Of a DNA stretch of 64,000 nt, positions 10,887 through 61,750 are shown piece after piece. The stretch lies in the IMG/VR virus record IMGVR_UViG_3300018917_000003; one strand, written 5' to 3'. The notes beneath the pieces were generated by a model. The model was not told the origin of the DNA. It worked only from the letters and a program-made list of their open reading frames with translations, and searched no databases. The position numbers were made by a program, and so were the translations under genes. How positions within the stretch are numbered: position 1 is the stretch's first letter; each line of letters begins with the position of its first letter. The DNA comes from a virus.

Positions 10887-12197
10887 TTAAACCTCTTTAA
10901 CGGGAATAGTTATGATTAATCCGCCTGGTGTGTGAAAAGTTTTTGTGTCGCCAGCAAGTTTGTATCTCGCTCCTTTTGGAACAAGAACTTCATCTTCTTC
11001 TGGAAATTTTGAAAGGTTTCTTATTGTAACACCTGACTTGTTTTCTATTACTTCATATATAATAGAAACCTTCTGACCTTTTTTGCTTGCTAAGGCAAAT
11101 GCACGTGCCTGAGACTCAGACGAACTAAAGCTTGACATAGCGTTTAGTTCATGAGAGTCTCCGTTTTGCAATTTTTTAATAGCGTCATCAAGAGCCTGTT
11201 GAGATTCTAGTTGTACCCCTCTATAGATAGATCTATAAAATTTGGGCATTTTTTCAATATATTGATTGATAGCTTTTACTTTGGATTTCATCTTAGTAAT
11301 GACTTCACTTGATTCTCCTGAGCTTAGTTTTCCAGTTTTTTCTAGTTCTCTATATTTTTTGTAACCTGCTCCGCTAAACTCTGCGAGAGCATCCAACGAT
11401 GCTTTCACTTCTTTATCTTTCATTCCAGTTACTTTTGATATTTTCCTGACAACTTCTGGATTTTTGATATCGGAACTAGAACCGAACGCAGCAAGTAAAT
11501 TATCCTCATCCTCATCTGCGCCAGAAGTAGCAGAAGCCGGAATTACATCATGCGTATTATCAATACTAAAGGGCTTTATTTTTGCAGTAGGTTGTGCAAT
11601 ATTAGAAGAAAATAATTTACTCCTGGCAGCTTCTAAAACATTTGCTTTAGCCGCTAAAAGTTCAGCACTGCCATACTTTGACCATTTATGATTCCCGTTC
11701 GCCGTTAAGTATCGCGCTAGCGTCCGAAGCTTGTCAATGCGTCCTTGGCTAATATTGGCAACCGCGCCACCCTCTTTTTTTACTTTCTGTCCAAAGCTGT
11801 TAATCCAGCAAGTGTTTTTTAATTGAATGCAAGCCTTGCCACAACTGTAACTAACAGCAGTACAACTAGGTTTTTTGCCACTTTTGACAGCATCCCATCT
11901 AACTCCCAGTGATATGTAGCCGGAGGAGAAAATATCAAATTGTTTGGCTGCTGTAGCACTGTCCGCCCGATCGAGCGTCAACGAAGGTTTATAACCTATT
12001 CGATTTTTTTCAATAGAGTAGCTAAAAATTCGATTGTTCCAGGTATCTTGAAACTTTCCAGTAATGTCGCCGTTGCTAGCAAGTGCAAATGAAAGCACGT
12101 AAAAATTCGAGTTGTATGCGTCGTCACTTTCTATCAACGCCTCTAACTGCTCTACAAAGTCCGTCAGTTCATTGTTCGTTTCTACACGATTTGTCAT
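10887..12197 (-). CDS. Paralogue family member P1: Cys4 N-module plus C-terminal ADP-ribosyltransferase (R-S-E type)
   Basis: The C-terminal ~120 aa carry IYRG (R about 326), FSSS (about 357-360) and EEDEVLVPKGARY (ExE about 401-403). This is the classical R / S-T-S / E-x-E triad of C3/Alt-like ARTs. Its start overlaps the portal stop. Confidence 0.8.
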   Translation of the reverse strand: MTNRVETNNELTDFVEQLEALIESDDAYNSNFYVLSFALASNGDITGKFQDTWNNRIFSYSIEKNRIGYKPSLTLDRADSATAAKQFDIFSSGYISLGVRWDAVKSGKKPSCTAVSYSCGKACIQLKNTCWINSFGQKVKKEGGAVANISQGRIDKLRTLARYLTANGNHKWSKYGSAELLAAKANVLEAARSKLFSSNIAQPTAKIKPFSIDNTHDVIPASATSGADEDEDNLLAAFGSSSDIKNPEVVRKISKVTGMKDKEVKASLDALAEFSGAGYKKYRELEKTGKLSSGESSEVITKMKSKVKAINQYIEKMPKFYRSIYRGVQLESQQALDDAIKKLQNGDSHELNAMSSFSSSESQARAFALASKKGQKVSIIYEVIENKSGVTIRNLSKFPEEDEVLVPKGARYKLAGDTKTFHTPGGLIITIPVKEV

Positions 12198-25063: not shown

Positions 25064-28000
25064 ATGGCTAGCGGAATTAATGTAATTTTCTCTATTACGG
25101 ACTTAGCGAGTTCTGCGCTGGCTAATGTTCGATCGGAAATGTCAAGAGTTGCCAGCGGTATTACTGAAGCTAGTACCGCGCTTTTCTTTTGGAGCGAAGC
25201 TTTTGGTCAAATACAAGTCGCATCCAGTCAATTCTATGACTTATTTATTGGTCAAAATGAACGGATGCGCCAGGATATACTGGCAACTCAGTCTAGTTTG
25301 GCTGCCGTTCAAGACGTATATATGAACGGCATTAAACTAACAGATCCTACCGCTGCAATACAAGCTTTTGAAGCTCCCATTAAAAAGTCGTTAAATCAAA
25401 TTGCGGTTGATTCCTTACAACTTGTCGGAGTCACGTCGGGACAATTGACAGACCTGTTTCAGGTTGCGCTTACTAATGCAACGAAGATAACAGCACAATC
25501 TAAAGAGTTTGCAGATCCCATCAAAGCTGCTGAGCGTTTAACTATCTCGTTTGCGGGTGCTTTTGGTGCGCTTGGCATCCCTATGGAGCAAGCCGGTCAA
25601 GAGATGGGGAGTATCTTGACTGCTCAAATTGATTCAAATAGTGTTTTAGCTAAAGGTCTTGGTATTACCAATCAGCAAGTTAGCGCTTGGAGTTCACAAG
25701 GAAAATTAGTGGATCAACTTGTAGGTAGACTTGCTCCATTTGTTGCTGGCAATGCTCTTGCTGCAAAAAGTGTAGGCAGTATTTTATCAAACCTTCAAGA
25801 GATTGTAGAGGTAACAACTCGACTATCTGGCGAAAAACTAACAGATTTGTTTGTTGAAAGTCTTGATATTATTTATCAATATCTCACCAGCATTCAACCT
25901 CAGATTCAACAAACACTAGATAATGTCACTGGATTTATCGTTGGCACTGTCGATACTATAACAAAAATATTATTACCTTTTCTTCCAACCTTTGAATCTA
26001 TTCGTGATTCCATTTTAAGCATAGGAGGTTCTTTAGGTGAGATAGCTGGAGGTTCTTTCCAGTTATTTTTGGCAGGATTAACTGGGATAATGCCTGTTCT
26101 GATGCCTGTTTTTAATTTACTTGGGGAGATTCTGAAAGTTGTGTCAGCACTTTTGGCAGATCCAGTAATTCAACAGATAGTGCAATTCGCTATAGTTGTT
26201 ACTGCCATTGCAGGGCCTTTGGCAACTATTGCCACTTTAATGGCAACTATTTCTGGACTTTTTGCAGCAGGAGGTAGTATTGGGCTATTTGTGACAACAC
26301 TGACTATCATTGCGCCGCAACTGGCAGCCACAGTTCTAACGCTAGTTTCAGCGATGGCATCAATTGCAGGATTCGCTGGATCTGCGGGGGCTGTTGTAGC
26401 ATCTGGGTCGGCAATGGCTGTACTAGGTAGCGCAATAACCACTGTAGCTGTCGCACTTGGGCCACTAGCGTTGGCAATTGCAGCGGTAGCAGCAGCAGCT
26501 TATGCTTTCCAAAATGCAAAAGCAGGTGATGCAGCAGAAGCCCTTGACACGATCGGAACCCGGAGCGATCAATCTACTACTGGAGCTAATAACACAGCCT
26601 TGAAGTTGCGCCAATTACGAGATGCAGAAATTATTCAAGGTGAGTTGACTGATGAACAAAAAGCTAACCAAAAAGCGTTGAAAACGCAAGCTACTAACTA
26701 TTCGGCGCAGATAGAAGCCGACATCGCCGCAGCCAAAGCCGTAGACACAGTTGGCAATGAGTCATTGGAAAACGCCAAGCAAGCTCTTGTAGCCGGAAAT
26801 CAACGATCTTTAGATGTTTTGGGCAAGTATGTCGGCGGGCTATCTACCTCCGCAAAAGCTTTGGCAGAGTTAGGAGGAATTTTTACACAAACAGGGAACC
26901 AAGTTATAGGCTTTGAGAAGCAAATAAAAGAAGCAACCTCAGATGCTGAGTTCCAGGCTGCCAACAAAGGATTAGCGGAATTAATAAATACTCAAGTTGA
27001 GTCTGGACAAATCGGCGCAGAACAGGGAACCAAGCGTCTACAGCAGATATTGAGTGACACCAGGGTAGAGATTGATGGCAAAGAGGCGGCTCTAAAGGCT
27101 CTCGAAGCCATCCAAAATTTGCAGCTAGAAAATGAACTAAATGCCAACGAAATAGCTCAAAACGAAATCAACAAAATGCGGGAAGAGGGGCGCATTGGCG
27201 AAGTAAAAGCTGAGCAAGAACTTACCGATCTTAAATTGAAAGAAATTGCAGCCCAATCGGATTCGCAAAAAGCATCGCATAGAGAAAGGATGCGCCAGAT
27301 TCAAGAAGAAATGAATACGGCATTAGAGGTATTAGATAAGGAGATTGCCCAAAAACAATCGAATCTTGACAAACTGAAAAGCACTAACGTTCCTAAAGTT
27401 GAGATTGTACAAGCAGAGCGAGATTTGGCAAAATCTAAAACTGCGCGAAACACAAAACAATCAGAATTCGTGAATATTCAATCTGAACAAAACGATGACA
27501 ACGCTTTAAAGTCAGCAAAATTAGCAGCAGAAGCCGCCAAAGTAGAAAAACAACAGCGAGACCTTCGCAAGCGCGAAGCGTTAAAAGACTTTGACGAACG
27601 CCAAAAAATCAACGACTCAGCCCGCGAACGGGGACTGAAAGACAACCAGGAAGCGGCGCGGGAATCTATTCAGATTGCCAAAGGTAGAGCAAAATTAGAG
27701 CTATCTCAAATTAAAGACAAAACGGCAAAACTGGAAGCCGAAGCCAAGAAGCAAGGCAAAACAGTCAAAGAGTACGACAAGGAAGCATGGGAAGCTTTGC
27801 AAGTTCAACAAGCCGAAGCATTGCAGAACTTAGCAAAAGCCCGCAAGGATGGATTTGAAAAACGTTTGTCAGATATAAAACAGGATGCCCAAGAAGCTAC
27901 TGCCATTGTTGAAGCAGCCCAAGCAAAAAATGAGATTGACAACCAGAAAGCTGCTACCAAAACGGCAGAGATTGCAACTAAAAGCATCAACACTCAGATT

Positions 28001-31000
28001 GCCTTAATTGCCAAGGAAATTGCTGCAAACAAGGGTAACAAAGAGCGACTGGAAGAATTAAACGCAAAACGAGCGGGACTAGAGAAAGACTTAACCGAGA
28101 TTCAAAAAAAGCAACTACAGCAGCGATTGTCAGACTTACAACAGGATGCCGATGAACGAATTTCTGTCATAAAAGCAAGGAATGCCACGGGTGCGATTGA
28201 CAATCAGCAAGCCGCCAAGCAAACTGCGGCGATCGAATCGGCTAGCTCTAAAAATCAACTCCAGATTGTCCAATCTCGAATTGCCGAGGTAGTAGCGGCT
28301 GACAAGAAACGAGGCAAGGTCAGCACTGAGTTATTGGAAGAATTGAGAAAACAGGAAAGTAACACCCAAGTCAAAATCACTGAGATAACCAAGAAGGAGA
28401 TGGAAACACGATTGGCTGACCTAAAAGAGGATGTAGCCGAACGCACCGCTGTAGTCAAGGCTTCTCAGGCAACAGGCGCGATCAATAATCAAGCAGCAGC
28501 GACGCAGACAGCAACGATTGAGCGCACTGGAGCCAACCAGAGACTAGAAATTGTTCGCCAGCAGATTCAGCAAGTAGCAGCCGAGGGCAAAAAGTCGGGT
28601 AATATCAACGTTGAGTTGATGGAAACTTTGAGAAAGCAAGAAGCTGAAATCCAAGTCGAAATCACAGACATTGACAAAAAAGCGATGGAGTCACGACTAT
28701 CTGACTTGCAGCAAGATGCAGATGAGCGCGTAGCTGTCATCCAAGCAGCCAATGCACTGGGGACAAAAGAAAATCAGCAGACAGCTATTTCTACTTCTCA
28801 AATTCAGCAAAAAAGTGCAAACGATCAGCTAAAGATTGTACGAGAAAGAATTAATACGGTCATTGAAGAAGGCAAAAAATCAGGCAAAGTTAATACAGAA
28901 TTACTAGAAGAACTGCGTAAAAAAGAAGCAGACATCCAAGTTAAGATCACTGAGATTCAAAAACAAGAACTACAGAAGCGATTGTCAGATTTGCAACAAG
29001 ACGCCGAAGAACGAACAGCAATTATAACGGCTGCAAACGCAACGGGAGTGCTTGACAATCAAGAAGCTGCCACAAAAACAGCAAAAATTCAACAAAGTAG
29101 TTTAGAGTCTCAATTAAAACTAATTCAACAACGGATAAAGACGACTAATCCTGCTAGCAAGGAATTACTAGAAGAGTTGAGAAAACAAGAAGCGGATACT
29201 CAGGTTAAAATTACTGAAATTCAAAAACAAGAATTGCAAAAACGGTTGACAGATTTGCGCGAAGATGCTGACGAACGTACAGCGTTAATCGCTGCCGCTA
29301 ATGCGACGGGCATAATTGACAACCAGCAGGCGGCGGCGAAGACAGCTAAAGTTCAGCAGGATGGGTTAAACGCTGAACTTGAATTAGTTCGCAAACGTAT
29401 CTCAACAGTGGGTACAAAGAATAAAGAACTGCTAGAGGAACTGCGGAAGCAAGAAGCAGACATTCAAGTCAAGATTACCGAAGTGCAAAAGCAGGAGATG
29501 CAAAAGCGATTGAGCGATCTAGAGCAAGATGCAGCAGAAAGAATCGCCATCGCTGAATCGGCAAACGCCCAAGGGTTGCTAGATAACCAGCAAGCTGCTG
29601 TTGCCACTGCCAAAATCCAAGAGGCAAGCGCCAGTAAACAAATTGAGATTATTCGCAAACGAATAGACGAGATTCGTGCGCAAGGGCAGAAAACCGGAAA
29701 AGTTAACATCGAATTACTGGAAGAGTTGCAGGCACAGGAAGCTAACGCTCAGAAAAAAATTGCCGACATTCGGAAGCAGTTTTTACAGAAGCAACTTGCC
29801 GACCTACAGCAAGACGCCGACGAACGACTATCTGTCGTTACTGCCCAAAATGCTAAAGGCGATATTGACAATCAAGCTGCTGCTACTCGATCAAGCGCAA
29901 TTCAAAAGCAAAATCTAGACTCTCAGCTTACGCTCATCCAGAATCAGTTAAAAGTTGTCGGCAGAACAAACAAAGAATTACGCGAAGAGTTGCTAAAACA
30001 GGAAGCTGATATCCAGGTCAAGATTACCGAAATCCAGAAGCAAGAATTACAAAAGCGCTTAAGTGACTTACAACAAGACTCGCAAGAGCGCGTCTCAGTC
30101 GTTGAAGCTGCCGCAGCAATCGGGGAAAAAGACAACCAGCAGACGGCGACAGAAATAGAAAATATCCAGAGCCAAAGTGTCAAAAACCAACTTGAGTTGA
30201 TTCGAGAACGAATTGCTGCAACCAGTCCGCTAAATAAAGAACTAAATGAGGAGTTGAAAGCACAAGAATCCAAGCTACAAAAAGAACTCACAGAAATCCA
30301 AGAGCAAGGCTTTCAGAAGCGGTTATCAGATTTGCAACAGGATGGGGAGGAACGATTGGCAATAGTTACATCCGAGGGTGTTAGAGGTCTAGCGAATAAT
30401 CAAGAAACTGCTATAAAATCAGCAGCTATTCAAGAAGAATCAGCAGAGCAACAGTTAGCACTGATTCGAGAAGGATTGGGTCAGGCTAGCAGTGAACTTC
30501 GAGAAAAACTGCTAAAACAAGAAGCCGACACCCAAGCCAAAATTGCTGAGATTCGCAAGCAAGCTTTTGATAAACGGTTGGCAGATGTAGAGCAGGACGG
30601 TCAAGAACAGCAAGCGATTTTAGAGGGACAATTAGCGCAAGGACTGACAACTGAATCCGAGTATGCACAGGGGCGTTATAATCAAACCCTGCAATTCTTA
30701 GACGCTCAACTGGTACTAATCCGAGAACGCAGATCGCAAATGTCTGTATCTGACATTGAGGGACAGGAAGCGCTTGCGGCACAGGAAACGTCGTTACAGA
30801 AGCGACGACAGGATGCGCTGTCCCAATTCTTGGAAGCTCAGTTAAGCTTGCTCGATCGGGAAAACAAGAAAGCAACCGACCTGCTAGAACAGTCAGAACT
30901 TGACCGCAAACTGATAACCAAGCAAGCTGCATTATCTGGTGCTGCCGACAAAGATGCTGCCGCCACCGCCGAAATTCAGGCAACTCAGCGCCGAATCCAG

Positions 31001-32401
31001 CAGGAAATAGCGCTGGAGGAACAGAAAAATGCCACGCTGCGATCACTCCCGGCATTCTCTGACCCCGCAAAAGAAGCTGAGCGTCAGTCCAGAATCCGGG
31101 CATCAGTCAAGAAAACGACTGAACTAAGACTTCAATTGATAGATGAAGAGAAGCGAGCCTTTGATTTGTTGATTGACCGCCAGATAAAAGGCATTCAAAA
31201 CCAATCTAGAGCGCAAGAACTAGCGTCTGACGTGCAGGTACGAGCAATCGAGCAACAGGGCAAGCAGTACGACTTACTCAGTCAATCGCTAGAGAACCAA
31301 AACAAGCTTCTGCAATCACGCGCAAGTTTGGCTAACGCGCTCAATGGATACATCCAAGGCGAATATAAAATTTTGCAGAACAGCGCGGGTTCTGAAGGTG
31401 AACGCAAGCGACTCATAAAAGAAGCCGCAGACGCCCAACTGGTAGCGATGCAACAGCAGCAAATCGTAGCACAGAAAAATCTTGACATTGAAATCAAGCA
31501 GGCAGAGATTGCTCAAAAACGCGCAGAGTTTGAGGCAGAGATTGCAGAGATAAAAGCCCGCGCCGGGTCAGCTAAGGCTGACGCTGAAGTTCTCAAGGCT
31601 GAAGCCACACTGCAAAAAGTACAGCGCGACCCCAACGCCAGCAATGCCGATGTAGAAGCCGCCAAACTGGATGTTGTAGCCGCCCGTGCCGCTGCGGAGG
31701 CTGCTGTTGCTGATATTGCTTTTGCGATCGCAAATAAAGAAATGGTCGGGCAGAACGGAAAAGTTCTGAAAGTACAGAACGACCTAAAACGGGAAACACA
31801 GTTGATCGAGCAAGTAACCCAAAGACGGGCGGCACAGGCGCAGGCGATCGAGGCAATAGTAGACGAGAATGAGAAAAAGCTGAGACAGCGCCAACTAGCG
31901 GGACGTTTAACACCGGAAGAGTCAGAACGACTGGCACGGATTCAACGCGAGAACCAGCAACGCGAAGCCACCAGGCGACGAGATGAAATAGAGCGAAACA
32001 CATTGATGGGGATTGTTACGCCTAATGGGGTACGGCGGGGGATTCAAGCGGCTGGAGTGCGATCGGCTTCGTTGCTAGGCGAAATCGAGCAAACTGCGGC
32101 GACAGCGCCCAAAGTGCCGGAGCTGAAAAATTTGGTTGCCCAGATGAATATACAGCGACAACAGATTGCCACGGTTAAACCGGATGTCAATCCACTTATC
32201 AGGTTACAGGAAGAAAGCACGGGATACCAGAAAGAGATGCTTGGGGTGCTCAAGCAGCTTAATGGGAAGCCGACCCCCGCGCCCGTGACTCCAGTTTCTA
32301 ATAGTTTCAATATCAAAGCAGAAGCGGGAATATCCGAGGCACAAGTGCTAGGCGTGTTTAGTCAGGTGAGTCAGCAGGTGACACAAATGTTGAAGCGCTA
32401 G
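25064..32401 (+). CDS. Tail tape measure protein (2445 aa)
   Basis: Very large, alpha-helical, Ala/Gln/Glu/Lys-rich. It has a hydrophobic Gly/Ala-rich segment (aa ~330-500) typical of TMPs and long tandem coiled-coil repeats. Confidence 0.85.
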   Translation: MASGINVIFSITDLASSALANVRSEMSRVASGITEASTALFFWSEAFGQIQVASSQFYDLFIGQNERMRQDILATQSSLAAVQDVYMNGIKLTDPTAAIQAFEAPIKKSLNQIAVDSLQLVGVTSGQLTDLFQVALTNATKITAQSKEFADPIKAAERLTISFAGAFGALGIPMEQAGQEMGSILTAQIDSNSVLAKGLGITNQQVSAWSSQGKLVDQLVGRLAPFVAGNALAAKSVGSILSNLQEIVEVTTRLSGEKLTDLFVESLDIIYQYLTSIQPQIQQTLDNVTGFIVGTVDTITKILLPFLPTFESIRDSILSIGGSLGEIAGGSFQLFLAGLTGIMPVLMPVFNLLGEILKVVSALLADPVIQQIVQFAIVVTAIAGPLATIATLMATISGLFAAGGSIGLFVTTLTIIAPQLAATVLTLVSAMASIAGFAGSAGAVVASGSAMAVLGSAITTVAVALGPLALAIAAVAAAAYAFQNAKAGDAAEALDTIGTRSDQSTTGANNTALKLRQLRDAEIIQGELTDEQKANQKALKTQATNYSAQIEADIAAAKAVDTVGNESLENAKQALVAGNQRSLDVLGKYVGGLSTSAKALAELGGIFTQTGNQVIGFEKQIKEATSDAEFQAANKGLAELINTQVESGQIGAEQGTKRLQQILSDTRVEIDGKEAALKALEAIQNLQLENELNANEIAQNEINKMREEGRIGEVKAEQELTDLKLKEIAAQSDSQKASHRERMRQIQEEMNTALEVLDKEIAQKQSNLDKLKSTNVPKVEIVQAERDLAKSKTARNTKQSEFVNIQSEQNDDNALKSAKLAAEAAKVEKQQRDLRKREALKDFDERQKINDSARERGLKDNQEAARESIQIAKGRAKLELSQIKDKTAKLEAEAKKQGKTVKEYDKEAWEALQVQQAEALQNLAKARKDGFEKRLSDIKQDAQEATAIVEAAQAKNEIDNQKAATKTAEIATKSINTQIALIAKEIAANKGNKERLEELNAKRAGLEKDLTEIQKKQLQQRLSDLQQDADERISVIKARNATGAIDNQQAAKQTAAIESASSKNQLQIVQSRIAEVVAADKKRGKVSTELLEELRKQESNTQVKITEITKKEMETRLADLKEDVAERTAVVKASQATGAINNQAAATQTATIERTGANQRLEIVRQQIQQVAAEGKKSGNINVELMETLRKQEAEIQVEITDIDKKAMESRLSDLQQDADERVAVIQAANALGTKENQQTAISTSQIQQKSANDQLKIVRERINTVIEEGKKSGKVNTELLEELRKKEADIQVKITEIQKQELQKRLSDLQQDAEERTAIITAANATGVLDNQEAATKTAKIQQSSLESQLKLIQQRIKTTNPASKELLEELRKQEADTQVKITEIQKQELQKRLTDLREDADERTALIAAANATGIIDNQQAAAKTAKVQQDGLNAELELVRKRISTVGTKNKELLEELRKQEADIQVKITEVQKQEMQKRLSDLEQDAAERIAIAESANAQGLLDNQQAAVATAKIQEASASKQIEIIRKRIDEIRAQGQKTGKVNIELLEELQAQEANAQKKIADIRKQFLQKQLADLQQDADERLSVVTAQNAKGDIDNQAAATRSSAIQKQNLDSQLTLIQNQLKVVGRTNKELREELLKQEADIQVKITEIQKQELQKRLSDLQQDSQERVSVVEAAAAIGEKDNQQTATEIENIQSQSVKNQLELIRERIAATSPLNKELNEELKAQESKLQKELTEIQEQGFQKRLSDLQQDGEERLAIVTSEGVRGLANNQETAIKSAAIQEESAEQQLALIREGLGQASSELREKLLKQEADTQAKIAEIRKQAFDKRLADVEQDGQEQQAILEGQLAQGLTTESEYAQGRYNQTLQFLDAQLVLIRERRSQMSVSDIEGQEALAAQETSLQKRRQDALSQFLEAQLSLLDRENKKATDLLEQSELDRKLITKQAALSGAADKDAAATAEIQATQRRIQQEIALEEQKNATLRSLPAFSDPAKEAERQSRIRASVKKTTELRLQLIDEEKRAFDLLIDRQIKGIQNQSRAQELASDVQVRAIEQQGKQYDLLSQSLENQNKLLQSRASLANALNGYIQGEYKILQNSAGSEGERKRLIKEAADAQLVAMQQQQIVAQKNLDIEIKQAEIAQKRAEFEAEIAEIKARAGSAKADAEVLKAEATLQKVQRDPNASNADVEAAKLDVVAARAAAEAAVADIAFAIANKEMVGQNGKVLKVQNDLKRETQLIEQVTQRRAAQAQAIEAIVDENEKKLRQRQLAGRLTPEESERLARIQRENQQREATRRRDEIERNTLMGIVTPNGVRRGIQAAGVRSASLLGEIEQTAATAPKVPELKNLVAQMNIQRQQIATVKPDVNPLIRLQEESTGYQKEMLGVLKQLNGKPTPAPVTPVSNSFNIKAEAGISEAQVLGVFSQVSQQVTQMLKR
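27783..30735 (+). repeat. Eleven tandem in-frame units (254-287 nt, about 85-95 aa each) inside the tape measure gene
   Basis: The motif (Q)KRLSDLQQDA(D/E)ER..V..A.NA.G..DNQ.AA..TA.IQ.. recurs with its KRLSDL core near nt 27860, 28122, 28405, 28692, 28977, 29240, 29503, 29788, 30052, 30318 and 30572. Confidence 0.9.
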
Positions 32402-32597
32402 AAGCGAGAGCTAATTGGCTTACTCAAATAGATGAGTCTGTCACGCAGATTATTTGTATTTTATATACTTCCTACGTGACAGACTCAACTATTACATTGT
32501 CGACTCTATTTGTATTTTACTTGATGAGGTTGATTGAGTTTTGAAAACAAAAACAAAACAGTCTCAGCGGGTAGAATGAAGAAATACTTCTCGCTTC
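32401..32597 (+). repeat. Structured intergenic element, copy A
   Basis: GAAGCGAGAG...CTTCTCGCTTC termini. Hairpin arms at 32431-32445 and 32475-32487. It begins on the last base of the tape measure TAG. Confidence 0.9.
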
Positions 32598-32743
32598 AAA
32601 AACCTATCACCATCGCCAATTTCGGAAGAAACTCGTTAAGTTCTGACAGAAACTTTGATATTAGACTAGAGCCGAGAGCAAGCATATCGCCAAATTTCAA
32701 ATTGCTAGCCGACCGACAAAGACGGTTCCGGTATTCAGATTAA

Positions 32744-32953
32744 GAAGCGAGAGCAATTCCATCAAGGGGATGATCGCTTTTCTATGGATGAGTTTGTCAC
32801 GCAGATTATTTATATTTTATAACTTTCTACGTGACAAACTCATCTATTATGTCTTTGACTGTATCTACATTTTGACTGTAGAGGTTGTTTTAGTTTTGCA
32901 AGAGGAGATAAAACCAGTCTCAACAAGTGGAATAACTAATTTGCTCTCGCTTC
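32744..32953 (+). repeat. Structured intergenic element, copy B
   Basis: GAAGCGAGAG...CTCTCGCTTC termini. Hairpin 1 carries a compensated C-G to T-A change relative to copy A. Hairpin 2 arms at 32877-32887 and 32915-32925. Confidence 0.9.
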
Positions 32954-32984
32954 AAAACCTGATTGTCACGCAAATGTTGCAGCA

Positions 32985-33843: not shown

Positions 33844-33872
33844 TTGACAAATCAGAAATAAGCTGCTAACGT
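33844..33872 (+). promoter_or_regulatory. Sigma70-like promoter candidate for 33940-34266
   Basis: TTGACA (33844-33849), 17-nt spacer, TAACGT (33867-33872). Confidence 0.4.
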
Positions 33873-34966: not shown

Positions 34967-35017
34967 AAAAAATGCGGTAGAAACACAGCAGCCTGTTTCT
35001 ACCGCATTTGCAGTTTT
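34967..35017. terminator. Bidirectional intrinsic terminator
   Basis: 13-bp stem TGCGGTAGAAACA (34973-34985) / TGTTTCTACCGCA (34994-35006), with an A-run upstream and a T-rich tract downstream. Confidence 0.75.
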
Positions 35018-35080: not shown

Positions 35081-35282
35081 GAAGCGAGACAACACTTAAC
35101 TTGGTTATCATTACAGATGAGTCTGTCACTCAGTTATTTGTATTTTATAACTTTCCTACGTGACAGACTCATCTATTGTATTCTGGACTCTAGTTATCTT
35201 CCACCTGTACAGGTTGCTTTAGTTTTGAAAATAGAAATCGAAGAAACTTCAACAGGTAAGATAGACAAATTGCTCTCGCTTC
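35081..35282 (+). repeat. Structured intergenic element, copy C
   Basis: GAAGCGAGAC...CTCTCGCTTC termini. Perfect 14-bp hairpin GATGAGTCTGTCAC (35116-35129) / GTGACAGACTCATC (35160-35173) with a 30-nt loop. Confidence 0.9.
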
Positions 35283-35303
35283 AACACCAGATCATTGGGT
35301 AGC

Positions 35304-49826: not shown

Positions 49827-49886
49827 GTGAGACAGGTACAAGTACGCCTCTTGTCGTCTTTTTTCGACAGGGCTTTTTTATGTCCT

Positions 49887-50084
49887 GAAGCGAGAGACAA
49901 TTTGTATAGGCTTATTGTTGAGCTTGTTGCTCAGATTTTTTATATTTATAATAATTCTACGTGACAAACTCATCTATTACATTGTCGCTTCTACTTACAT
50001 TCTGACTGTAGAGGTTGCTTTAGTTTTGAAAACAGAAATTAAACTAGCCTTAACAGGTGGAGCGAACAAAATGGCTCTTGCTTC
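49887..50084 (+). repeat. Structured intergenic element, copy D (left hairpin arm degenerate)
   Basis: GAAGCGAGAG...CTCTTGCTTC termini. The loop carries TATAAT. Hairpin 2 is conserved. Confidence 0.85.
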
Positions 50085-50143
50085 AAAACCCAGACTGTTG
50101 TTTGCGTTATCATTTAGGTAGACTTATTGCAAAAAATAAAATT

Positions 50144-50749: not shown

Positions 50750-50997
50750 CACGCAAGAGTTAGAACTTAGATCTATTGTTAAGTTTAGATTATGAGTTCA
50801 TCGGTTCAAACTTTCCAATCGATTCAGGTTTATTGCTGAGGCTGTCACTCAGATTTTTATATTCTATATCTCTTCTACGTGACAGACTCATCTATTATAT
50901 CTTCGACTCTATGGATATTCCACCTGTAGAGCTTGATCGAGTTTTAAAAAAATCAGAGCGACCTCAACCAGTGGAATAGGTAAATGACTCTCGCTTT
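50750..50997 (+). repeat. Structured intergenic element, copy E (longer, divergent left end)
   Basis: Hairpin 1, its loop and hairpin 2 are conserved. The right end is CTCTCGCTTT. The left end GCAAGAGTTAGAACTTAG is shared with a solo fragment near 43750. Confidence 0.8.
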
Positions 50998-51042
50998 AAC
51001 ACCCGCTCACCGCCACCAATTTTGCCAGAAACTCGTTAAACT

Positions 51043-51073
51043 CTGACAAAAACCTTTGATATTTTGGTATAAT
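51043..51073 (+). promoter_or_regulatory. Extended -10 promoter candidate for 51143-52183
   Basis: CTGACA (51043-51048) and TGGTATAAT (51065-51073). Followed by a nested 5'-UTR hairpin GCCACT..AGGACG..CGTCCT..AGTGGC. Confidence 0.55.
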
Positions 51074-51142
51074 TGAATATTAAGCCACTAGGACGTTAGA
51101 GCGTCCTTTTATCAGTGGCAGTCACCTAAACAACTAGGCAAC

Positions 51143-52183
51143 ATGAGTAATATAACAGTTTTGCGGACAGAGCGCAATGGCGTTGAGTTTTTCACTATCG
51201 CAGCTACGGGCGAGTCGGGGATGAGCCAAAGTGGTCTAGCGCGGGCGTGTGGGAAGGATCAATCTACTATTAGTCGGTTGATTGAGGCACTGTCAGGGGA
51301 AAAGTCTTCAAAAACGTTAAAACCCTCAACTTACAAAGGTTTTGCACCGTCAGGCAAATTTTCTTTAAAAAAGCTAAATCCTTCTGTAGACAAGGATTTG
51401 ACACTTATGCAAAAAGTGTATTCAAAATGGCTACAACCTTTTACCGGAAAGGATTTGACACTTATGCGTGACCACTCTAGCTCTGATAGTAAGACTCGCA
51501 ACGTCACGGTTTACACTGCTGAGTTTTGCGCTGCGGTAATCAAACACTACGCTTACAGCGGTTCTGAGACAGCTCAGGACTTTGATTTCTCACTGGGAAT
51601 TATTGGGTTAACGTCCTACATTCAGAGTCAGACAGGATGGTTGCCTAAAGAGTTTAAGGCAGCGCCCAAAGAGCATGACAAGCTGGATGAATTTCTAGGC
51701 TTAGCGATGGAATGGGATCGAGGGCCGATGATGGTAGTTGATTGGGAAGGTGAAGTCGATATGTCTGACAGTTGGACATTTTTCGATGCGATTGTGTTTT
51801 CTGGTTTTACCCCTGAAGAGTTTATCTTATTTGAAGATGAGACAAGAGAGCTAGGACTGCAAAAACATAGCAAGAGTGAACAAGTTAAGCTATTTTTTAA
51901 AAGGAATCCTGAAATAGAAGAAAGGCAAAAACCTTACACCGAGAATGTTAGAAGGATGTTAAGACTGCCCAAAAATTCGCAATTATTTCGGATGACTTTT
52001 TTAGACGAGTACGGATGTAATTTGGATAATCTTTATTCCAAATTAGAAACTTCCGCCTCTGCCTTACGAATATACAGGCTAGGATACGCAGATCGAACAC
52101 AATACGCAGACCCCCAATACCCATACTCCCGTAACTCAGACTATCTGGAAGGCTGGAACGCAAACATCAGCGTAAGCCAATAA
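51143..52183 (+). CDS. Hypothetical DNA-binding protein (N-terminal HTH)
   Basis: GMSQSGLARACGKDQSTISRLIEAL is an HTH-like segment. There is an internal short duplication (..DKDLTLMQ.. / ..GKDLTLMR..). Confidence 0.55.
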   Translation: MSNITVLRTERNGVEFFTIAATGESGMSQSGLARACGKDQSTISRLIEALSGEKSSKTLKPSTYKGFAPSGKFSLKKLNPSVDKDLTLMQKVYSKWLQPFTGKDLTLMRDHSSSDSKTRNVTVYTAEFCAAVIKHYAYSGSETAQDFDFSLGIIGLTSYIQSQTGWLPKEFKAAPKEHDKLDEFLGLAMEWDRGPMMVVDWEGEVDMSDSWTFFDAIVFSGFTPEEFILFEDETRELGLQKHSKSEQVKLFFKRNPEIEERQKPYTENVRRMLRLPKNSQLFRMTFLDEYGCNLDNLYSKLETSASALRIYRLGYADRTQYADPQYPYSRNSDYLEGWNANISVSQ

Positions 52184-53436: not shown

Positions 53437-53730
53437 ATGGACGAAACACAAAGACAAGCACAGCGCAAATACTCGGCAACAAGAAAGGGACGATCAAACC
53501 GTAACAAAGCACAGCGCAAATACTCGACGACAGAGGGAGCAAAGGAAGTCCAGCGCAAGTACGAGGCATCAGAGAAAGCCAAAGAGCGCAAGCGGCGGTA
53601 CTTTGAAAGTTTGACACCGGAACAGCGGGAGAGACTACAGGAAAACCAGCGCAAGGCTAAGCGGTTAAGCGCTCAACGGCGGCGGGAAAAAGAAAAGCAA
53701 AAGAATTTTGGCTTAGGGGTTGACACATGA
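53437..53730 (+). CDS. Small basic protein with three (A)QRKY(S/E) repeats
   Basis: AQRKYSATRKG / AQRKYSTTEGAKEV / QRKYEASEKAKERKRRY. Highly basic, probably nucleic-acid binding. Confidence 0.5.
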   Translation: MDETQRQAQRKYSATRKGRSNRNKAQRKYSTTEGAKEVQRKYEASEKAKERKRRYFESLTPEQRERLQENQRKAKRLSAQRRREKEKQKNFGLGVDT

Positions 53731-53753
53731 AAGTAGTAGATATACGATGACAG
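53701..53753 (+). promoter_or_regulatory. Conserved promoter-like block, copy 2
   Basis: Near-identical to 52637-52688. TTGACA is at 53720-53725. It overlaps the 3' end of 53437-53730 and lies about 60 nt upstream of the ATG at 53784. Confidence 0.45.
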
Positions 53754-55179: not shown

Positions 55180-55644
55180 ATGTTAAGACAAATCCAAACA
55201 AGCATTCTGGCAAGACTTGCCCCGGTGAGGGAGTTATTACATCCTGATGAGGTATTAGGTCAAAAGTTGCCTGATAATGCGTCAAGAATGACTCAAGAGG
55301 ACGCTCGAGATGTCGTAGTGTTCATTAGGGCCGGCAATATCCGAGAGATTCAGATAGAAGTCAATGTGTTGCTCTCTAGCCACGTTAAATCGTCTACCGA
55401 TTGCTTCCCAGTAGTCGAGAAAGTTTGGGGCCTGTTGCATACGTTTTTGCCCGATAGCGCCGCCGGAGTGCTAGCAAATATGAGTTGGGAATTAACGACT
55501 AACGGAACCCGCTGGCTAGCAAAATTCAACTACACGACGGCAATATCGCCTTATGTGTTCGAGTTCCCCGATCCGAAGGCTACTCTACCGGGTATTAACA
55601 ACATAACGTCACCGATCGCACCCTCTGCCACACTCCAATTCTGA
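55180..55644 (+). CDS. Hypothetical protein
   Basis: 154-aa ORF. Its TGA overlaps the first bases of repeat copy F. Confidence 0.5.
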   Translation: MLRQIQTSILARLAPVRELLHPDEVLGQKLPDNASRMTQEDARDVVVFIRAGNIREIQIEVNVLLSSHVKSSTDCFPVVEKVWGLLHTFLPDSAAGVLANMSWELTTNGTRWLAKFNYTTAISPYVFEFPDPKATLPGINNITSPIAPSATLQF

Positions 55645-55847
55645 AGCGAGAAATCACTCAGGTTTGATCTACCTGTATAGATGAGCCTGTTACTCAGATT
55701 TTTTATATTTATAATATTTCTACGTGACAAACTCATGTATTAGGTTTCCAATTCTACCTACATCCTGACTGTAGAGGTCGATCAAGTTTTGAAAGTAAAA
55801 GTTAAACCAATCTCAACAGGTAGGATTGATAAATGACTCTCCCCTCT
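55643..55847 (+). repeat. Structured intergenic element, copy F (right terminus degenerate)
   Basis: GAAGCGAGAA left end. The loop carries TATAAT. Hairpin 2 CTGTAGAGGT / ATCTCAACAG is conserved. Confidence 0.85.
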
Positions 55848-55876
55848 GAACTAGACAGCCGCCGCTGAAACAACCC

Positions 55877-55920: not shown

Positions 55921-56427
55921 CTAATCATCTGATTTATAGTGAAAGATGGATTCTAGTCGTTGTCTCTGTTCCTCATAATTTGTCTTCTTTTCAGTTACTT
56001 CTGCCTCTAGATTTTCGGTTGGCGGCTCCTCATCCTCTACATTTTCAAACCCCGTCAACTTAACTTTTTTCTTCTTTCTGGAGTCTTGAATTCTAGCTCT
56101 TTCTTCCCTTTCTGATCGTCGCTTCTCTGCCTCGTCTTTCCTCTGTTTAGCTAGTCTGGCTAGCTCCTCTGCCGTAGTCTTTTCGTGTCTGAGCCAATCG
56201 GGAAGATCGATAAAACATTCATCACACCAACTATCAAACTTGGATGGCGTTAAACTCGGTGGGCTTCTCCGATTCTGATGGCACATATCACAGAGACAGA
56301 ACACAACTGAGAGATGTCTCGCTTTTGCTGGTTGATAACGCCACCAATTGAACCGAAGGCGAGAGAGATTTTCTGCTAGTCTCTGTTTGACTTTTTTGGA
56401 ATATAGTTCGCCTTTCTTCATTGTCAA
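55921..56427 (-). CDS. Hypothetical Cys-rich / Lys-Glu-rich protein
   Basis: 168-aa ORF with a 4-nt overlap on rusA. CLCDMCHQ and WCDECF motifs suggest zinc binding. Confidence 0.5.
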   Translation of the reverse strand: MTMKKGELYSKKVKQRLAENLSRLRFNWWRYQPAKARHLSVVFCLCDMCHQNRRSPPSLTPSKFDSWCDECFIDLPDWLRHEKTTAEELARLAKQRKDEAEKRRSEREERARIQDSRKKKKVKLTGFENVEDEEPPTENLEAEVTEKKTNYEEQRQRLESIFHYKSDD

Positions 56428-57612: not shown

Positions 57613-57879
57613 CTAAATAAACTGAGCAATTTGATATGCTTGTTGATAGACCGAATCACTACTCTTTGGCTGCTGACCTTCTTTTTGATCGCTGACTGCT
57701 AAAACCACCTTGATTATCTGACTTTCAATTTCTAAAGGTAGTGTTTGATTGTAGCAGTAATAGTTAGCAGAAGTTTGGAGGAACGTAGGAATATCGGCTT
57801 CGTATTTCAAAAACCGAACTAATTGTTTTAAATTCATATTGCTTTTTGTTTTCAGTTTATTGTTCTTATACAATAGCAC
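57613..57879 (-). CDS. Hypothetical protein
   Basis: 88-aa ORF. No motif. Confidence 0.4.
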   Translation of the reverse strand: MLLYKNNKLKTKSNMNLKQLVRFLKYEADIPTFLQTSANYYCYNQTLPLEIESQIIKVVLAVSDQKEGQQPKSSDSVYQQAYQIAQFI

Positions 57880-57951
57880 ACGCTAACCATTTATGTCAAC
57901 AGACTTGAAAAGATTTTTAACGCAGAGCGGTAGAAACGAAAGAAAAATAAC

Positions 57952-57993
57952 TAATGACTAATGACTAATGACTAATGACTAATGACTAATGAC
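57952..57993. repeat. Tandem heptanucleotide array (TAATGAC)x6
   Basis: Same unit and orientation as nt 1-105. It directly abuts repeat copy G. Confidence 0.95.
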
Positions 57994-58000
57994 TGATGTA

Positions 58001-58169
58001 GAAGCGAGAGATAGTTTTGCTACCCATATGGTTGAGTCTGCTAATTGGTTAAATCTATTATATAGATTACTTGAGTAACAAACTCATCCATTACGACCTC
58101 GCGTCTATGAGTTTCTTGCCTGTAGAGGTTGCTTGAGTCTTGATTTAAAACTCTGTCTAAGAGAAAACC
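58001..58169 (+). repeat. Structured intergenic element, copy G (most degenerate)
   Basis: GAAGCGAGAG left end. Recognisable AACAAACTCATCCATTAC and CCTGTAGAGGTTGCTTGAG cores. Both hairpins are eroded. Confidence 0.7.
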
Positions 58170-58193
58170 GAAAAACTATCTTCAGTTTTTCCC

Positions 58194-58222
58194 TTGACAC
58201 CTTGGCAATAACCATTTAAATT
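58194..58222 (+). promoter_or_regulatory. Sigma70-like promoter candidate for the clamp gene
   Basis: TTGACA (58194-58199), 17-nt spacer, TAAATT (58217-58222). Confidence 0.55.
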
Positions 58223-59967: not shown

Positions 59968-59990
59968 TCAATCATCCCAAAAAACTATCA

Positions 59991-60016
59991 GACGGGCCGT
60001 TAGACCCGTCTTTTTT
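59991..60016 (+). terminator. Intrinsic terminator
   Basis: GACGGG-CCGTTAGA-CCCGTC followed by TTTTTT. Confidence 0.8.
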
Positions 60017-60021
60017 AGTTT

Positions 60022-60214
60022 GAGGCGAGAGAAGTTTTGCTGAATCCTATAGATGAGTCTGTCACTCAGATTTTTTATATTTATAATCTTCCTACGTGAC
60101 AAGCTCATCTATTGTATTGTCGCTTCTATCTGCATTCTGATTGTAGAGGTCGATCGAGTTTTGAAAATAGAAATCAAAACTGCCTCAGCAAATAAGAAAA
60201 ACAGATTGCTCCCG
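60022..60214 (+). repeat. Structured intergenic element, copy H
   Basis: GAGGCGAGAG left end. Hairpin arms at 60052-60065 and 60096-60109. TATAAT at 60082-60087. The right terminus is degenerate (TTGCTCCCG). Confidence 0.85.
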
Positions 60215-60266
60215 TTTTTCTATCCGCTCTCCCAAAAATCAATATAAACATATTTCATCTACAGGG

Positions 60267-60295
60267 TTGACATCAAGCGTTAGTCATGTTATCTT
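60267..60295 (+). promoter_or_regulatory. Sigma70-like promoter candidate upstream of tnpB
   Basis: TTGACA (60267-60272), 17-nt spacer, TATCTT (60290-60295). The preceding GGG matches the GGGGTTGACA blocks at 52652 and 53716. Confidence 0.45.
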
Positions 60296-61608: not shown

Positions 61609-61690
61609 AACCTTACCGAGGGATAACCGCTCCCATGCTCCCAATGAAGTAAGAAGCAAAAACTAGATTTGTCTAGTATTTGTCTGACAG
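61450..61690 (+). ncRNA. Putative omega-RNA (reRNA) scaffold overlapping the tnpB 3' end and right end
   Basis: By analogy with characterised TnpB systems. The segment 61588-61690 is conserved in a second copy and ends in a CTAGA-TTTG-TCTAG hairpin. Extent not determined. Confidence 0.4.
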
Positions 61691-61750
61691 ATGAAGGTGT
61701 AGCGGATTTTACTTTTGATATCAGTTTATCTGGTGGTGCAAAAAATGTTA

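Follow-up and report, generated by a model that had tools for sequence, protein, structure and literature searches.

The 64,000-nt stretch analysed here (the window) is a portion of a metagenomic phage of ~110 kb. It holds eight copies, A to H, of an intergenic cassette of ~204 nt, which occurs at least 11 times in the phage as a whole. The best-conserved part of the cassette is a long hairpin (hairpin 1), and a second hairpin (hairpin 2) lies in the 3' half of the long copies. A long hairpin had been predicted in copy C, and this was borne out: hairpin 1 is present in all eight copies of the window, and the genes around the copies are oriented as that prediction stated. Copy C is flanked on one side by the end of a minus-strand gene and on the other by a hairpin with a minus-strand T run, so minus-strand transcripts would cross it. 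Samples containing the phage are JGI 3300018933, 3300018757 and 3300018946, SRR5855416, SRR5855431 and SRR5855434, and ENA ERZ27286101. The features of the window are given below by coordinates, strand and description.

32401-32604, plus strand: copy A, with hairpin 1 at 32428-32492; left end overlaps the TAG stop codon of a 2445-aa ORF
32744-32960, plus strand: copy B, with hairpin 1 at 32784-32847, preceded on its 5' side by a 13-nt insertion; the copy is directed towards the end of a minus-strand gene
35081-35289, plus strand: copy C, the subject of the finding (covariance model R1, 193.8 bits; alignment)
35081-35090 and 35273-35282, plus strand: ends of copy C, GAAGCGAGAC and CTCTCGCTTC, respectively (alignment)
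35113-35176, no strand assigned: hairpin 1 of copy C, with left arm 35113-35129 and right arm 35160-35176
35123-35151, plus strand: promoter-like geometry in copy C, CTGTCA (35123-35128), 17 nt, TATAAC (35146-35151); match 9/12, last base C, not T
49849-49872: terminator-like hairpin ending 15 nt before copy D
49887-50091, plus strand: copy D, with hairpin 1 at 49914-49977; upstream of a phage lysozyme gene
50803-51004, plus strand: copy E, with hairpin 1 at 50832-50895; without the left terminal repeat
55643-55853, plus strand: copy F, with hairpin 1 at 55677-55740; left end overlaps the TGA stop codon of a 154-aa gene; faces a convergent gene
58001-58196, plus strand: copy G, with hairpin 1 at 58028-58091; in the divergent intergenic region upstream of the sliding-clamp gene
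58194-58222, plus strand: canonical promoter-like site TTGACA-N17-TAAATT, directly adjoining copy G on its 3' side; relatives conserve its spacing to the hairpin
59990-60011, plus strand: intrinsic-terminator-like hairpin with T run, 10 nt upstream of copy H; conserved in relatives
60022-60225, plus strand: copy H, with hairpin 1 at 60049-60112 and CTGTCA-N17-TATAAT at 60059-60087
60267-60295, plus strand: canonical promoter-like site TTGACA-N17-TATCTT, preceded by TG and lying 42 nt past copy H; conserved in relatives

The boundaries of the cassette are sharp, with pairwise homology among copies beginning at GAAGCGAGAG and stopping at CTCTCGCTTCAAAACC, and all but three of 16 long copies measure 202-205 nt. 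Copies are 79-88% identical and almost free of indels, whether compared inside either of two phages or across the pair, whose clamp proteins share 59% identity. A 151-kb relative carries at least 18 copies in the 49 kb sampled, or ~7% of that sequence. Most copies point the same way (10 of 11 in the phage of the window and 14 of 18 in the 151-kb relative), and two adjacent pairs were seen (A with B, and V89592 with V89820). Copies E and J, the latter outside the window, share a promoter and leader module after the cassette; at least this pair stems from a segmental duplication that included a gene. Assemblies break at cassette copies. Positions are conserved as well: among phages with contig coverage, the site upstream of the clamp gene (copy G) holds a cassette in 7/7, and the site after the gene following the clamp (copy H) in 6/7, with none in L066, although clamp proteins among these relatives are only 58-88% identical. 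In L065, an inserted gene displaces the H-position cassette. Purifying selection acts on the entire unit.

Phage genomes are normally compact, and conserved non-coding repeats at this density are unusual in them. In this case a unit of ~200 bp recurs at most operon boundaries and has kept ~80% identity while proteins drifted to ~60%, a pattern that indicates a shared cis-acting signal and probably a dedicated trans-acting factor. To our knowledge, very little is known about transcription control in phages that, like this clade, probably infect filamentous cyanobacteria; if the signal is regulatory, its copies would provide a transcription-unit map for the whole clade and a handle on finding the regulator.

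The cassette is confined to a small clade of uncultured phages that includes roughly eight relatives. Within IMG/VR, a single contig was found to carry it, the 151-kb relative, and searches of 185,579 species genomes, of plasmids and of cultured phages gave no copy. Scanning the genome collection with the right-arm 17-mer returned 43 single matches in unrelated taxa, approximately the number expected by chance, and no multi-copy cyanobacterial genome. Among cultured phages, the clamp had no protein match; the cassette itself had no DNA match there or in plasmids. Rfam gave 0 matches at gathering thresholds and sub-threshold miRNA-like hairpins only when thresholds were relaxed. One of two metagenome scans was empty and the other, in which the search pattern biased selection, gave one marginal hairpin (L058, 25 bits). 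A lone hairpin in L073 has arms similar to hairpin 1, possibly by chance. The TnpB protein of the phage is 81% identical to a TnpB on a Nostoc plasmid, which hints that the hosts are probably Nostoc-like cyanobacteria; the clade, with genomes of about 110-150 kb, probably infects Nostocales. No tRNA or tmRNA was found, nor was a phage RNA polymerase found near the copies, where large unannotated ORFs match tail-fibre families.

Could the cassette simply be a selfish, non-autonomous element of the MITE or REPIN kind, its hairpin and terminal repeats recognised by a transposase encoded elsewhere and of no benefit to the phage? It has 10-bp terminal inverted repeats (ends GAAGCGAGAG and CTCTCGCTTC), is about 200 bp long, AT-rich, non-coding, intergenic and multi-copy, and has the sharp boundaries, adjacent pairs and assembly breaks described above. 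Its presence is also lineage-specific, with copy E lacking a counterpart upstream of the homologous gene in three relatives, where the regions are too diverged for an exact empty site. However, there is no target-site duplication, the flanks of 11 copies share no direct repeat and the E/J pair stems from segmental duplication. The sole transposase-type gene is a lone tnpB that relatives lack, and neither the window nor the other loci analysed contain an autonomous element with cassette ends. Absence from the species genomes, plasmids and cultured phages searched, the filled clamp-upstream and post-operon sites across 58-88% clamp identity, and near-freedom from indels at 59% protein identity further argue against mobility, and we regard this origin as very unlikely. 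Elements derived from IS200/IS605 (PATEs) have subterminal hairpins but no terminal inverted repeats, insert 3' of a fixed tetranucleotide and have a TnpA (Y1) partner; this identity was rejected given the terminal inverted repeats, the varying left flanks (TA, CT, TT) and the presence of tnpB only. An IS605 or omega-RNA link to the nearby tnpB was also rejected, as no covariance-model match was found at the tnpB ends and the gene is missing from relatives. The tnpB gene itself is inserted after copy H.

In copy C, the stem of hairpin 1 pairs 35115-35129 with 35160-35174 (15 bp) and is extendable to 35113/35176, giving 15-17 bp around a loop of about 30 nt, or 26 nt when counted between fixed 19-nt arm windows. 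Folded as plus-strand RNA, it reaches a minimum free energy of -26.2 kcal/mol (z = -7.28; 0/200 shuffles equal it), and the z-scores for minus-strand RNA and for DNA are -9.3 and -7.69, respectively. Stem arms span 15-19 nt, and the loop is 26 nt long in almost all copies of the main hairpin type. One relative (L066) carries mini-hairpins that have the same arm and lower-stem sequence around unrelated loops of 16-17 nt without the promoter motif. Hairpin 1 is a real, selected feature, and both of its arms are conserved as sequence.

The original prediction described a C-G pair replaced by T-A in copy B as a compensatory substitution. The pairings themselves are right (GAGTCTGTCAC with GTGACAGACTC in A and C, GAGTTTGTCAC with GTGACAAACTC in B), but across 39 copies the two sides of this position vary independently (Fisher p = 1.0), with C·A in 20, C-G in 7, T-A in 9 and T·G in 2, leaving the claim of selection for pairing unsupported family-wide. 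The methodological lesson is that a compensatory change seen among three copies vanished on comparing 39. In the 34 copies of the main type, Watson-Crick cells number 510 versus 503 ± 4.4 in column shuffles (p = 0.08). Clear double changes are limited to GTCAC/GTGAC versus GTCGTTT/AAACGAC, which separate whole genomes into two hairpin types; the covariation of hairpin 1 comes solely from this split. Two types divided by genome are what co-evolution with a trans-acting factor would predict.

There is no strand asymmetry in hairpin 1. A·C mismatches number 40 and G·U pairs 19, showing no plus-strand bias, and the minus-strand RNA folds better in 18 of 25 copies; at the variable middle position discussed above, the minus strand forms a standard pair (G·U, G-C or A-U) in 36/39 copies. 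Unlike hairpin 1, hairpin 2 shows a plus-strand preference: it has 72 G·U versus 15 A·C, 90% of its cells are paired, and its consensus fold of -7.5 kcal/mol on the plus strand has no equivalent on the minus strand. Judged from these substitution patterns, hairpin 2 appears to behave like plus-sense RNA, in which case part of the cassette is probably transcribed, through read-through or from an intact loop motif. Because the G and H sites are divergent or downstream of a terminator, plus-sense cassette RNA there would need an internal start.

Hairpin 1 could also act as RNA, as a long intercistronic or 3'-untranslated duplex that marks transcript ends and is cut by RNase III or RNase E, blocks 3' exonucleases or causes termination, in the manner of T7 RNase III sites, lambda sib, REP sequences and Correia elements. 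Its stable 15-19 bp stem (z of -7 to -9), the RNA-type G·U pattern of hairpin 2 on the same strand and the normal minus-strand pairing at the middle mismatch position would suit such a role. So would the location of several copies: four long ones (A, F, L069_x2 and V89592) begin at or over the stop codon of a co-oriented upstream gene and would thus be co-transcribed with it, and D, E and H share their orientation with both neighbouring genes. Yet covariation within the main type is not significant, arms and loop are conserved as sequence, the plus-strand preference of hairpin 2 is missing and no U tract follows the stem. The positionally conserved copies G and H are moreover those least likely to be read through, H following a terminator and G having no plus-strand promoter-like site upstream of it in the divergent region. 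We consider a role of hairpin 1 as RNA unlikely. The terminal repeats had been seen as a source of tension, since a transcript starting in the loop would exclude the left repeat from an RNA closing helix. This tension is resolved: the repeats show no covariation and carry uncompensated GCATC changes at the right end in the 151-kb relative, so they need not form a closing helix, and a covarying helix was rejected. A left-arm mini-hairpin with T run, flagged as a terminator in D, E and two relatives, was discarded because its stem has 5-8 pairs and is absent from the second hairpin type.

Next to the structure, the original prediction reported a promoter-like motif, with CTGTCA in the left arm lying exactly 17 nt upstream of a -10-like hexamer in the loop of every copy. 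A sigma-70-like geometry is present in the loop and recurs in relatives, but it is less uniform than described. The hexamers of seven copies agree (TATAAT in D, F and H, TATAAC in B and C, TATATA or TATATC in A and E), whereas G has TATAGA at 17 nt and reaches TATATA only at 15 nt. The spacer is 18 nt in A and B, and CTGTCA occurs only in A, C, E and H, with TTGTCA in B, TTGTTG in D, CTGTTA in F and CTGCTA in G. In shuffled loops of the same composition, a perfect TATAAT at a spacer of 16-18 nt arose in 0.4-2.5% of trials and a hexamer match of at least 5/6 in 9-22%; because the copies are homologous, the loop motif counts as one event, not eight.

Across 41 copies, the motif could be read, as the original prediction proposed, as a working sigma-70-type promoter, the main rival to recognition of hairpin 1 as a DNA site. 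The (C/T)TGTCA of the left arm would serve as a weak -35 element and the loop TATAAT as the -10 element, with a start at the purine 7 nt further on; the resulting plus-sense RNA would begin with the right arm and continue into hairpin 2, and the arms would act as an operator or cruciform switch. TATAAT is found in 21/41 copies, the 17-nt spacer in 32/41 and the purine at +7 in 39/41, and four copies match the consensus at 11/12 positions (for example, TTGTCA-N17-TATAAT; one lies at L067 9785-9813). The fixed 26-nt loop of the main type is as promoter spacing requires, the plus-sense RNA signature of hairpin 2 at terminator-shielded H and divergent G calls for an internal start, and in copy K, V57488 and L069_x1 a terminator-like hairpin ~120 nt further on would delimit an sRNA-sized unit.

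Other features count against a loop promoter. The last T is among the most conserved bases of real -10 elements. Here, position 2 of the hexamer is A in 41/41 copies, but the last T (position 6) is the least conserved position, kept in 22/41 copies and in 1/7 orthologues at the clamp-upstream position, the oldest, and replaced by G in most second-type copies. The -35-like hexamer, which is part of the stem, is also variable: CTGTCA (4/6) occurs in 15 of 41 copies, TTGTCA (5/6) in 5 and worse matches in the others, with variants including CTGTTG, CTGCTA and CTGTCG. Hexamer quality is unrelated to the presence of a downstream co-oriented gene (TATAAT in 3/5 convergent copies versus 3/5 others), the G and H positions have perfect TTGACA promoters 0-90 nt past the cassette, the L066 mini-hairpins lack the motif, and a promoter alone does not account for covariation of the -30 and +5 regions. 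The promoter geometry is apparently not what selection preserves, and a working loop promoter seems rather unlikely. A more elaborate version, which we think quite improbable, would be a regulon of tens of identical 'promoter-in-a-palindrome' cassettes, in which the -35 region and first transcribed bases form the arms of a 17-bp inverted repeat, all switched together by one phage factor or by cruciform extrusion and each launching a hairpin-2 leader upstream of the unit's ordinary promoter. If true, this would be a second, temporally distinct transcription layer in a phage otherwise using host polymerase.

The evident phage promoters are separate from the hairpin: perfect TTGACA elements in a canonical TTGACA-N17-TAnnnT arrangement, located just past the cassette. 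Such a promoter on one side and a strong terminator (7-9 bp, GC-rich, with a T run) on the other enclose copy H and its orthologues, and the order terminator, cassette, TTGACA promoter is found at H, G, E, J and in relatives, but not at B, C, F or I. The distance between the right arm and the TTGACA of the clamp promoter falls into two classes about three helical turns apart: four phages have 111, 111, 110 and 111 nt, and another two have 78-79 nt. Five of the 11 copies lie between convergent genes.

Our preferred reading, which we hold tentatively (probability roughly 0.37), is that hairpin 1 is an inverted repeat recognised sequence-specifically at transcription-unit boundaries. The recognised site would consist of an AT-rich spacer, constant at about 26 nt and with a TATA core, and the 15-19-nt arm on either side of it. 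It would be bound by a factor of phage or host origin, past stop codons or terminators and just upstream of TTGACA-N17-TAnnnT promoters, and the bound factor would set, insulate or time the neighbouring transcription units. Candidate binders among the phage proteins are two HU-like proteins and a 181-aa CI-like protein whose gene adjoins copy H. We infer both that recognition is by a protein acting on DNA and that transcription is affected. The evidence for this is that the cassette is a discrete unit under selection, that the arms are conserved as sequence without strand bias, that the double changes divide whole genomes, and that location, spacing and the mini-hairpins fit a bound site. Several observations weigh against it. 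The shared orientation of copies is needless for a symmetric site, though the whole cassette is asymmetric; the plus-strand RNA signature of hairpin 2 is left unexplained; the five convergent-gene copies have no promoter to regulate; and TATAAT, the 17-nt spacer and the +7 purine are better conserved than a mere spacer needs. The constant hairpin-to-promoter spacing could also reflect mere selection against indels across the cassette.

We also considered coding potential. One frame is stop-free across the cassette in 6/16 long copies, the other five frames having 1-9 stops each, and could specify a small hydrophobic protein that begins with the left-arm ATG. This idea is close to refuted: the remaining 10/16 copies contain stops, variability is 0.614, 0.643 and 0.621 bits at codon positions 1, 2 and 3 and thus without codon periodicity, the start codon varies (ATG, TTG or CTG), and neither copy G nor the second hairpin type keeps the frame intact. 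The 3' end of the cassette was rejected as a source of the lysozyme start codon, as the lysozyme domain begins downstream at MRHINEKG, outside the cassette. By eye, neither a T4-late-type TATAAATA (minus strand), nor NtcA or CRP sites, nor an IHF consensus was conserved across copies.

Among known systems, Correia elements (CREE) of Neisseria, like bacterial MITEs in general, share with the cassette a length of 100-200 bp, terminal inverted repeats, intergenic multi-copy occurrence, folding into long hairpins and some positions conserved between related genomes; Correia elements can also contribute promoter hexamers and affect neighbouring genes. They duplicate a TA target, reside in cellular genomes and have promoters at their ends, whereas the cassette lacks a target duplication, lives in phage genomes and is found in no cellular genome searched. 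The REP, BIME and REPIN sequences of Enterobacteria and Pseudomonas are likewise imperfect palindromes with conserved stems and variable loops, in intergenic mosaics that often start right after stop codons; they are bound by host proteins and can stabilise or terminate the mRNA that lies upstream. Single REP units are similar to the L066 mini-hairpins. REPs, however, measure 20-40 nt and are tied to a RAYT transposase and a conserved GTAG, while the cassette unit is much larger and Pfam annotations revealed no RAYT in ~80 kb of the phage. T7 RNase III sites and lambda sib, which lies just beyond a terminator, are also intergenic hairpin families at phage gene boundaries, mostly in one orientation, but they function solely as transcribed-strand RNA, and loop sequence is not conserved among them. 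Hairpin 1, by contrast, has no strand preference, a conserved loop and sites where read-through is unlikely.

Another parallel is offered by the PeSL (promoter-early stem-loop) cassettes of T4-type phages, in which a short terminator-like stem-loop lies just upstream of a near-consensus promoter (PMC2839356, PMC4122927). Both are repeated, conserved intergenic motifs between the transcription units of large phage genomes that combine a stem-loop with sigma-70-type promoter sequences. The present cassette differs in its size (~204 bp), 15-19-bp stem, promoter-like hexamer in the loop, second hairpin and terminal inverted repeats, and in that the canonical promoter is a separate downstream feature; there is no sequence similarity, and the phage lineages are unrelated. 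A further likeness is enrichment near genes that differ between related phages, seen here in the tnpB after copy H, the extra gene before the H-position copy of L065 and the lineage-specific copy E. If copies of the cassette also recombine, the idea of cassette shuffling would extend beyond T4-type phages.

Folding placed the predicted hairpin at 35116–35173 within hairpin 1, the palindromic core of an intergenic repeat (the cassette), in the third of eight cassette copies in the window, all of them on the + strand.

Cassette copies in the window
32401–32604, + strand, copy A, dispersed repeat
32744–32960, + strand, copy B, dispersed repeat
35081–35289, + strand, copy C, dispersed repeat that includes the hairpin under study
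49887–50091, + strand, copy D, dispersed repeat
50803–51004, + strand, copy E, dispersed repeat
55643–55853, + strand, copy F, dispersed repeat
58001–58196, + strand, copy G, dispersed repeat
60022–60225, + strand, copy H, dispersed repeat

A 22-mer from within the right arm had nine matches at three or fewer mismatches, against none expected. Homology between copies starts at GAAGCGAGAG and ends at CTCTCGCTTCAAAACC, and these fixed ends delimit the cassette as a discrete ~204-nt unit bounded by 10-nt terminal inverted repeats. Of 16 long copies, 13 measure 202–205 nt. No covariation was found in the terminal repeats, which carry uncompensated changes in a 151.7-kb relative (IMGVR_UViG_3300035686_000002). 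A frame without stops is present in six of the 16 long copies; a protein-coding reading was rejected, with stops in 10 copies, a variable start codon and no codon periodicity. Copies E and J (the latter on the same phage, outside the window) arose by duplication of one segment comprising the cassette and a downstream gene with its promoter and leader. This promoter/leader module, which includes the hairpin AGGACGTTAGAGCGTCCT, is 87% identical between copy E with its 346-aa gene (window 50803–52183) and copy J with its 343-aa gene (contig L059, 18522–19888), and three relatives have no counterpart of copy E in front of the homologous gene.

Using a covariance model built from the eight window copies, we identified three more copies in this phage just beyond the window, one of which is inverted. 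Homologues of the clamp protein (58–88% identical) led to seven related contigs. The cassette lies upstream of the clamp gene, where copy G is found, in all seven phages with contigs reaching that position, and after the gene following clamp, where copy H is found, in six of the seven with coverage (it is missing there from L066, and in L065 an extra gene separates it from the operon). In the 151.7-kb relative, the 49 kb sampled contained at least 18 copies, split 14 to 4 between the strands. Copies are 79–88% identical both within and between these two phages, whose clamps are 59% identical; copy identity in excess of clamp identity, together with near-constant length, shows purifying selection on the whole unit. 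We did not find the cassette in 185,579 species genomes, plasmids, cultured phages, other IMG/VR contigs or Rfam. Its anatomy would fit a purely selfish MITE, but we consider this very unlikely, given that the flanks of the copies showed no target-site duplication, that the cassette is absent from cellular genomes and that selfishness would leave its long-term conservation unexplained. Two sequences in unrelated contigs are possible distant relatives of hairpin 1, although chance could account for either: L058 2854–2977 (an ERZ791574 contig) has GGATTAAGGCGTGAG and then a hairpin in which two more stem positions are compensated (model score 25 bits), and L073 635–694 (IMGVR_UViG_3300006753_000259) has the arms of hairpin 1 and a different loop.

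In copy C, 35115–35129 pairs with 35160–35174, extendable to 35113/35176. The predicted fold reaches −26.2 kcal/mol as RNA (z = −7.28, equalled by 0 of 200 shuffles), z = −7.69 as DNA and −31.3 kcal/mol for the reverse strand as RNA (z = −9.28). The original prediction held that a C-G pair had been replaced by T-A with pairing preserved, which is true of copies A, B and C but does not extend to the family: among 39 copies with readable arms, this position reads C·A 20 times, C-G 7 times, T-A 9 times and T·G twice, and its two sides are independent (odds ratio 0.63, p = 1.0; p = 0.16 in the main stem type alone). No stem position pairs less often, and C-G and T-A are each one transition from the commonest state, the mismatched C·A. 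Counted across 25 copies, the 19-pair stem has 82% of its cells paired, compared with ~30% in slid controls, and the covariation score exceeds all 500 shuffles. That covariation is almost wholly due to the existence of two hairpin types: five phages have GTCAC/GTGAC as the upper stem and three have GTCGTTT/AAACGAC, with one type per phage across all copies; the main type has 510 Watson–Crick cells compared with 503 ± 4.4 in shuffles (p = 0.08). The covariation being mostly between types, pairing is retained chiefly through sequence conservation of both arms. Hairpin 1 showed no + strand signature (40 A·C mismatches versus 19 G·U pairs), and in 18 of 25 copies the more stable fold is that of the reverse strand.

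The best fit to these data, which we hold tentatively (probability roughly 0.37), is that hairpin 1 is an inverted repeat recognized sequence-specifically and acting on DNA at transcription-unit boundaries. Both arms and the loop are conserved as sequence, the stem type switches across whole genomes, strand bias is lacking, the two ancient positions lie in presumably untranscribed spacers and the spacing to the next promoter is fixed. Matches to TTGACA-N16–18-TAnnnT number six in the window versus 1.9 expected, five of them intergenic, and are putative promoters of a clearer kind than the motif in the hairpin loop.

TTGACA-N16–18-TAnnnT sites in the window
33844–33872, motif match
53720–53748, resembles the promoter before a different gene in relatives (TTGACA...GATATACGAT)
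56400–56427, motif match
57870–57899, motif match
58194–58222, abuts the 3' end of copy G; arrangement recurs in relatives
60267–60295, 42 nt past copy H; arrangement recurs in relatives

Four phages have 111, 111, 110 and 111 nt between the right arm and the TTGACA of the clamp promoter, and two others have 78–79 nt; the spacing is kept although the intervening sequence has diverged, and the groups differ by about three helical turns.

Right arm to TTGACA intervals
110–111 nt: window 58083–58194; L067 9830–9941; L070 9822–9932; L072 9825–9936
78–79 nt: L069 9853–9931; L065 52–131

A GC-rich terminator hairpin with a T run precedes copy H and its orthologues, and another precedes copy D. No + strand promoter-like site was found upstream of copy G or its L067 and L070 orthologues. 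Copies B, C, F, I and K lie between convergent genes; copy C has the end of a minus-strand gene on one side and, on the other, a hairpin with a minus-strand T run, so that only minus-strand transcripts are expected across it. A 16-bp GC-containing hairpin (34970–35009) separates a 193-aa gene from copy C; with an A run at one edge and a T run at the opposite edge, it resembles a bidirectional terminator. In copies A, F, L069_x2 and V89592 (the last two in relatives) the cassette begins at, or overlaps, the stop codon of the preceding gene, an arrangement that would suit an RNA hairpin involved in processing or in forming 3' ends; the two conserved positions do not suit such a role, and we regard it as unlikely.

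Hairpin 2 of the cassette (CTGTAGAGGTTG ... CAACCTCAACAG) was analyzed in 16 long copies from two phages. Pairing occurs in 90% of cells compared with 40–53% in slid controls (199 Watson–Crick, 72 G·U and 15 A·C), variation is almost only through G·U, and G·U is the commoner of the two in 17 pairs and A·C in one. The consensus folds at −7.5 kcal/mol on the + strand and not at all on the reverse strand. This predicted signature is RNA-like and + sense, with the caveat that the structure was predicted on that very strand, and part of the cassette is probably expressed as + sense RNA.

A promoter in the hairpin 1 loop, functional in about half of copies (those with an intact hexamer), would account for the origin of such an RNA and is credible, if rather doubtful. 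Measured between fixed 19-nt arm windows, the loop is 26 nt in the main type, one copy excepted, and 26–28 nt in the second. Its hexamer in 41 copies is most often TATAAT (21), followed by TATATA (6), TATAAC (4) and TATAAG (4), with a purine 7 nt further on in 39; four copies match the promoter consensus at 11 of 12 positions, and shuffled loops gave a perfect TATAAT at the right spacing in 0.4–2.5% of trials. In 32 of the 41, a 17-nt spacer separates this hexamer from the one in the stem, and the claim that the motif lies exactly 17 nt from CTGTCA in every copy breaks down for A, B, D, F and G. Against a promoter, TATA is near-invariant yet the sixth base is the most variable, being T in only one of seven clamp-upstream copies and G in most second-type copies, and the upstream hexamer is merely stem, and variable. 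Two tandem mini-hairpins upstream of the clamp gene in L066, an 85%-identical relative (94–125 and 163–195; also 6833–6944), have the lower stem of hairpin 1 (GATGAGTYTG ... CAGRCTCATC) and short, unrelated loops.

Correia and REP/BIME elements are structural analogues of the cassette. The closest described concept is PeSL, a terminator/promoter cassette of T4-type phages (PMC4122927). None of the PeSL, Correia and REP/BIME definitions describes the cassette in full, and we rated it a dispersed intergenic regulatory palindrome.

The gene content of the window is that of a phage (phage lysozyme, RusA, DNA polymerase III beta clamp, tail-fibre proteins, portal and terminase), with a lone tnpB. 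Identical proteins place the window on ~110-kb metagenomic contigs (ENA ERZ27286101 k141_393253, 111,163 bp; JGI 3300018933, 109,795 bp); cultured phages gave no DNA-level match to the window and no match to the clamp protein. The tnpB product shares 81% identity with one encoded by a Nostoc sp. UHCC 0870 plasmid, and the phage genome has ACTAATG heptamer arrays resembling those of heterocyst-forming cyanobacteria, making a Nostocales-type host likely. These arrays lie at 1–110 and 57950–58000; relatives have CTGATAA or CTGATGA (L069 ~9760–9790, L070 ~9725–9740), and in several phages tandem arrays lie directly upstream of the clamp-upstream cassette. Contigs of different assemblies diverge just past the arrays, which therefore break or mis-join assemblies. 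The tnpB gene (60532–61608) is inserted between copy H and a CI-like gene, a site where all relatives lack it, and a 114-nt direct repeat (61578–61691 and 61741–61854) straddling its 3' end might represent a duplication of the right end or of a guide-RNA region. A 2445-aa ORF (25064–32401), whose stop codon overlaps the first base of copy A, has no Pfam match and holds at least eight tandem repeats, each 264 or 285 nt long (28043–30586). Three 300-nt direct repeats (8301–8600, 9611–9910 and 11644–11943; 65–81% identical) within neighbouring minus-strand genes suggest paralogous structural or injected-protein genes.
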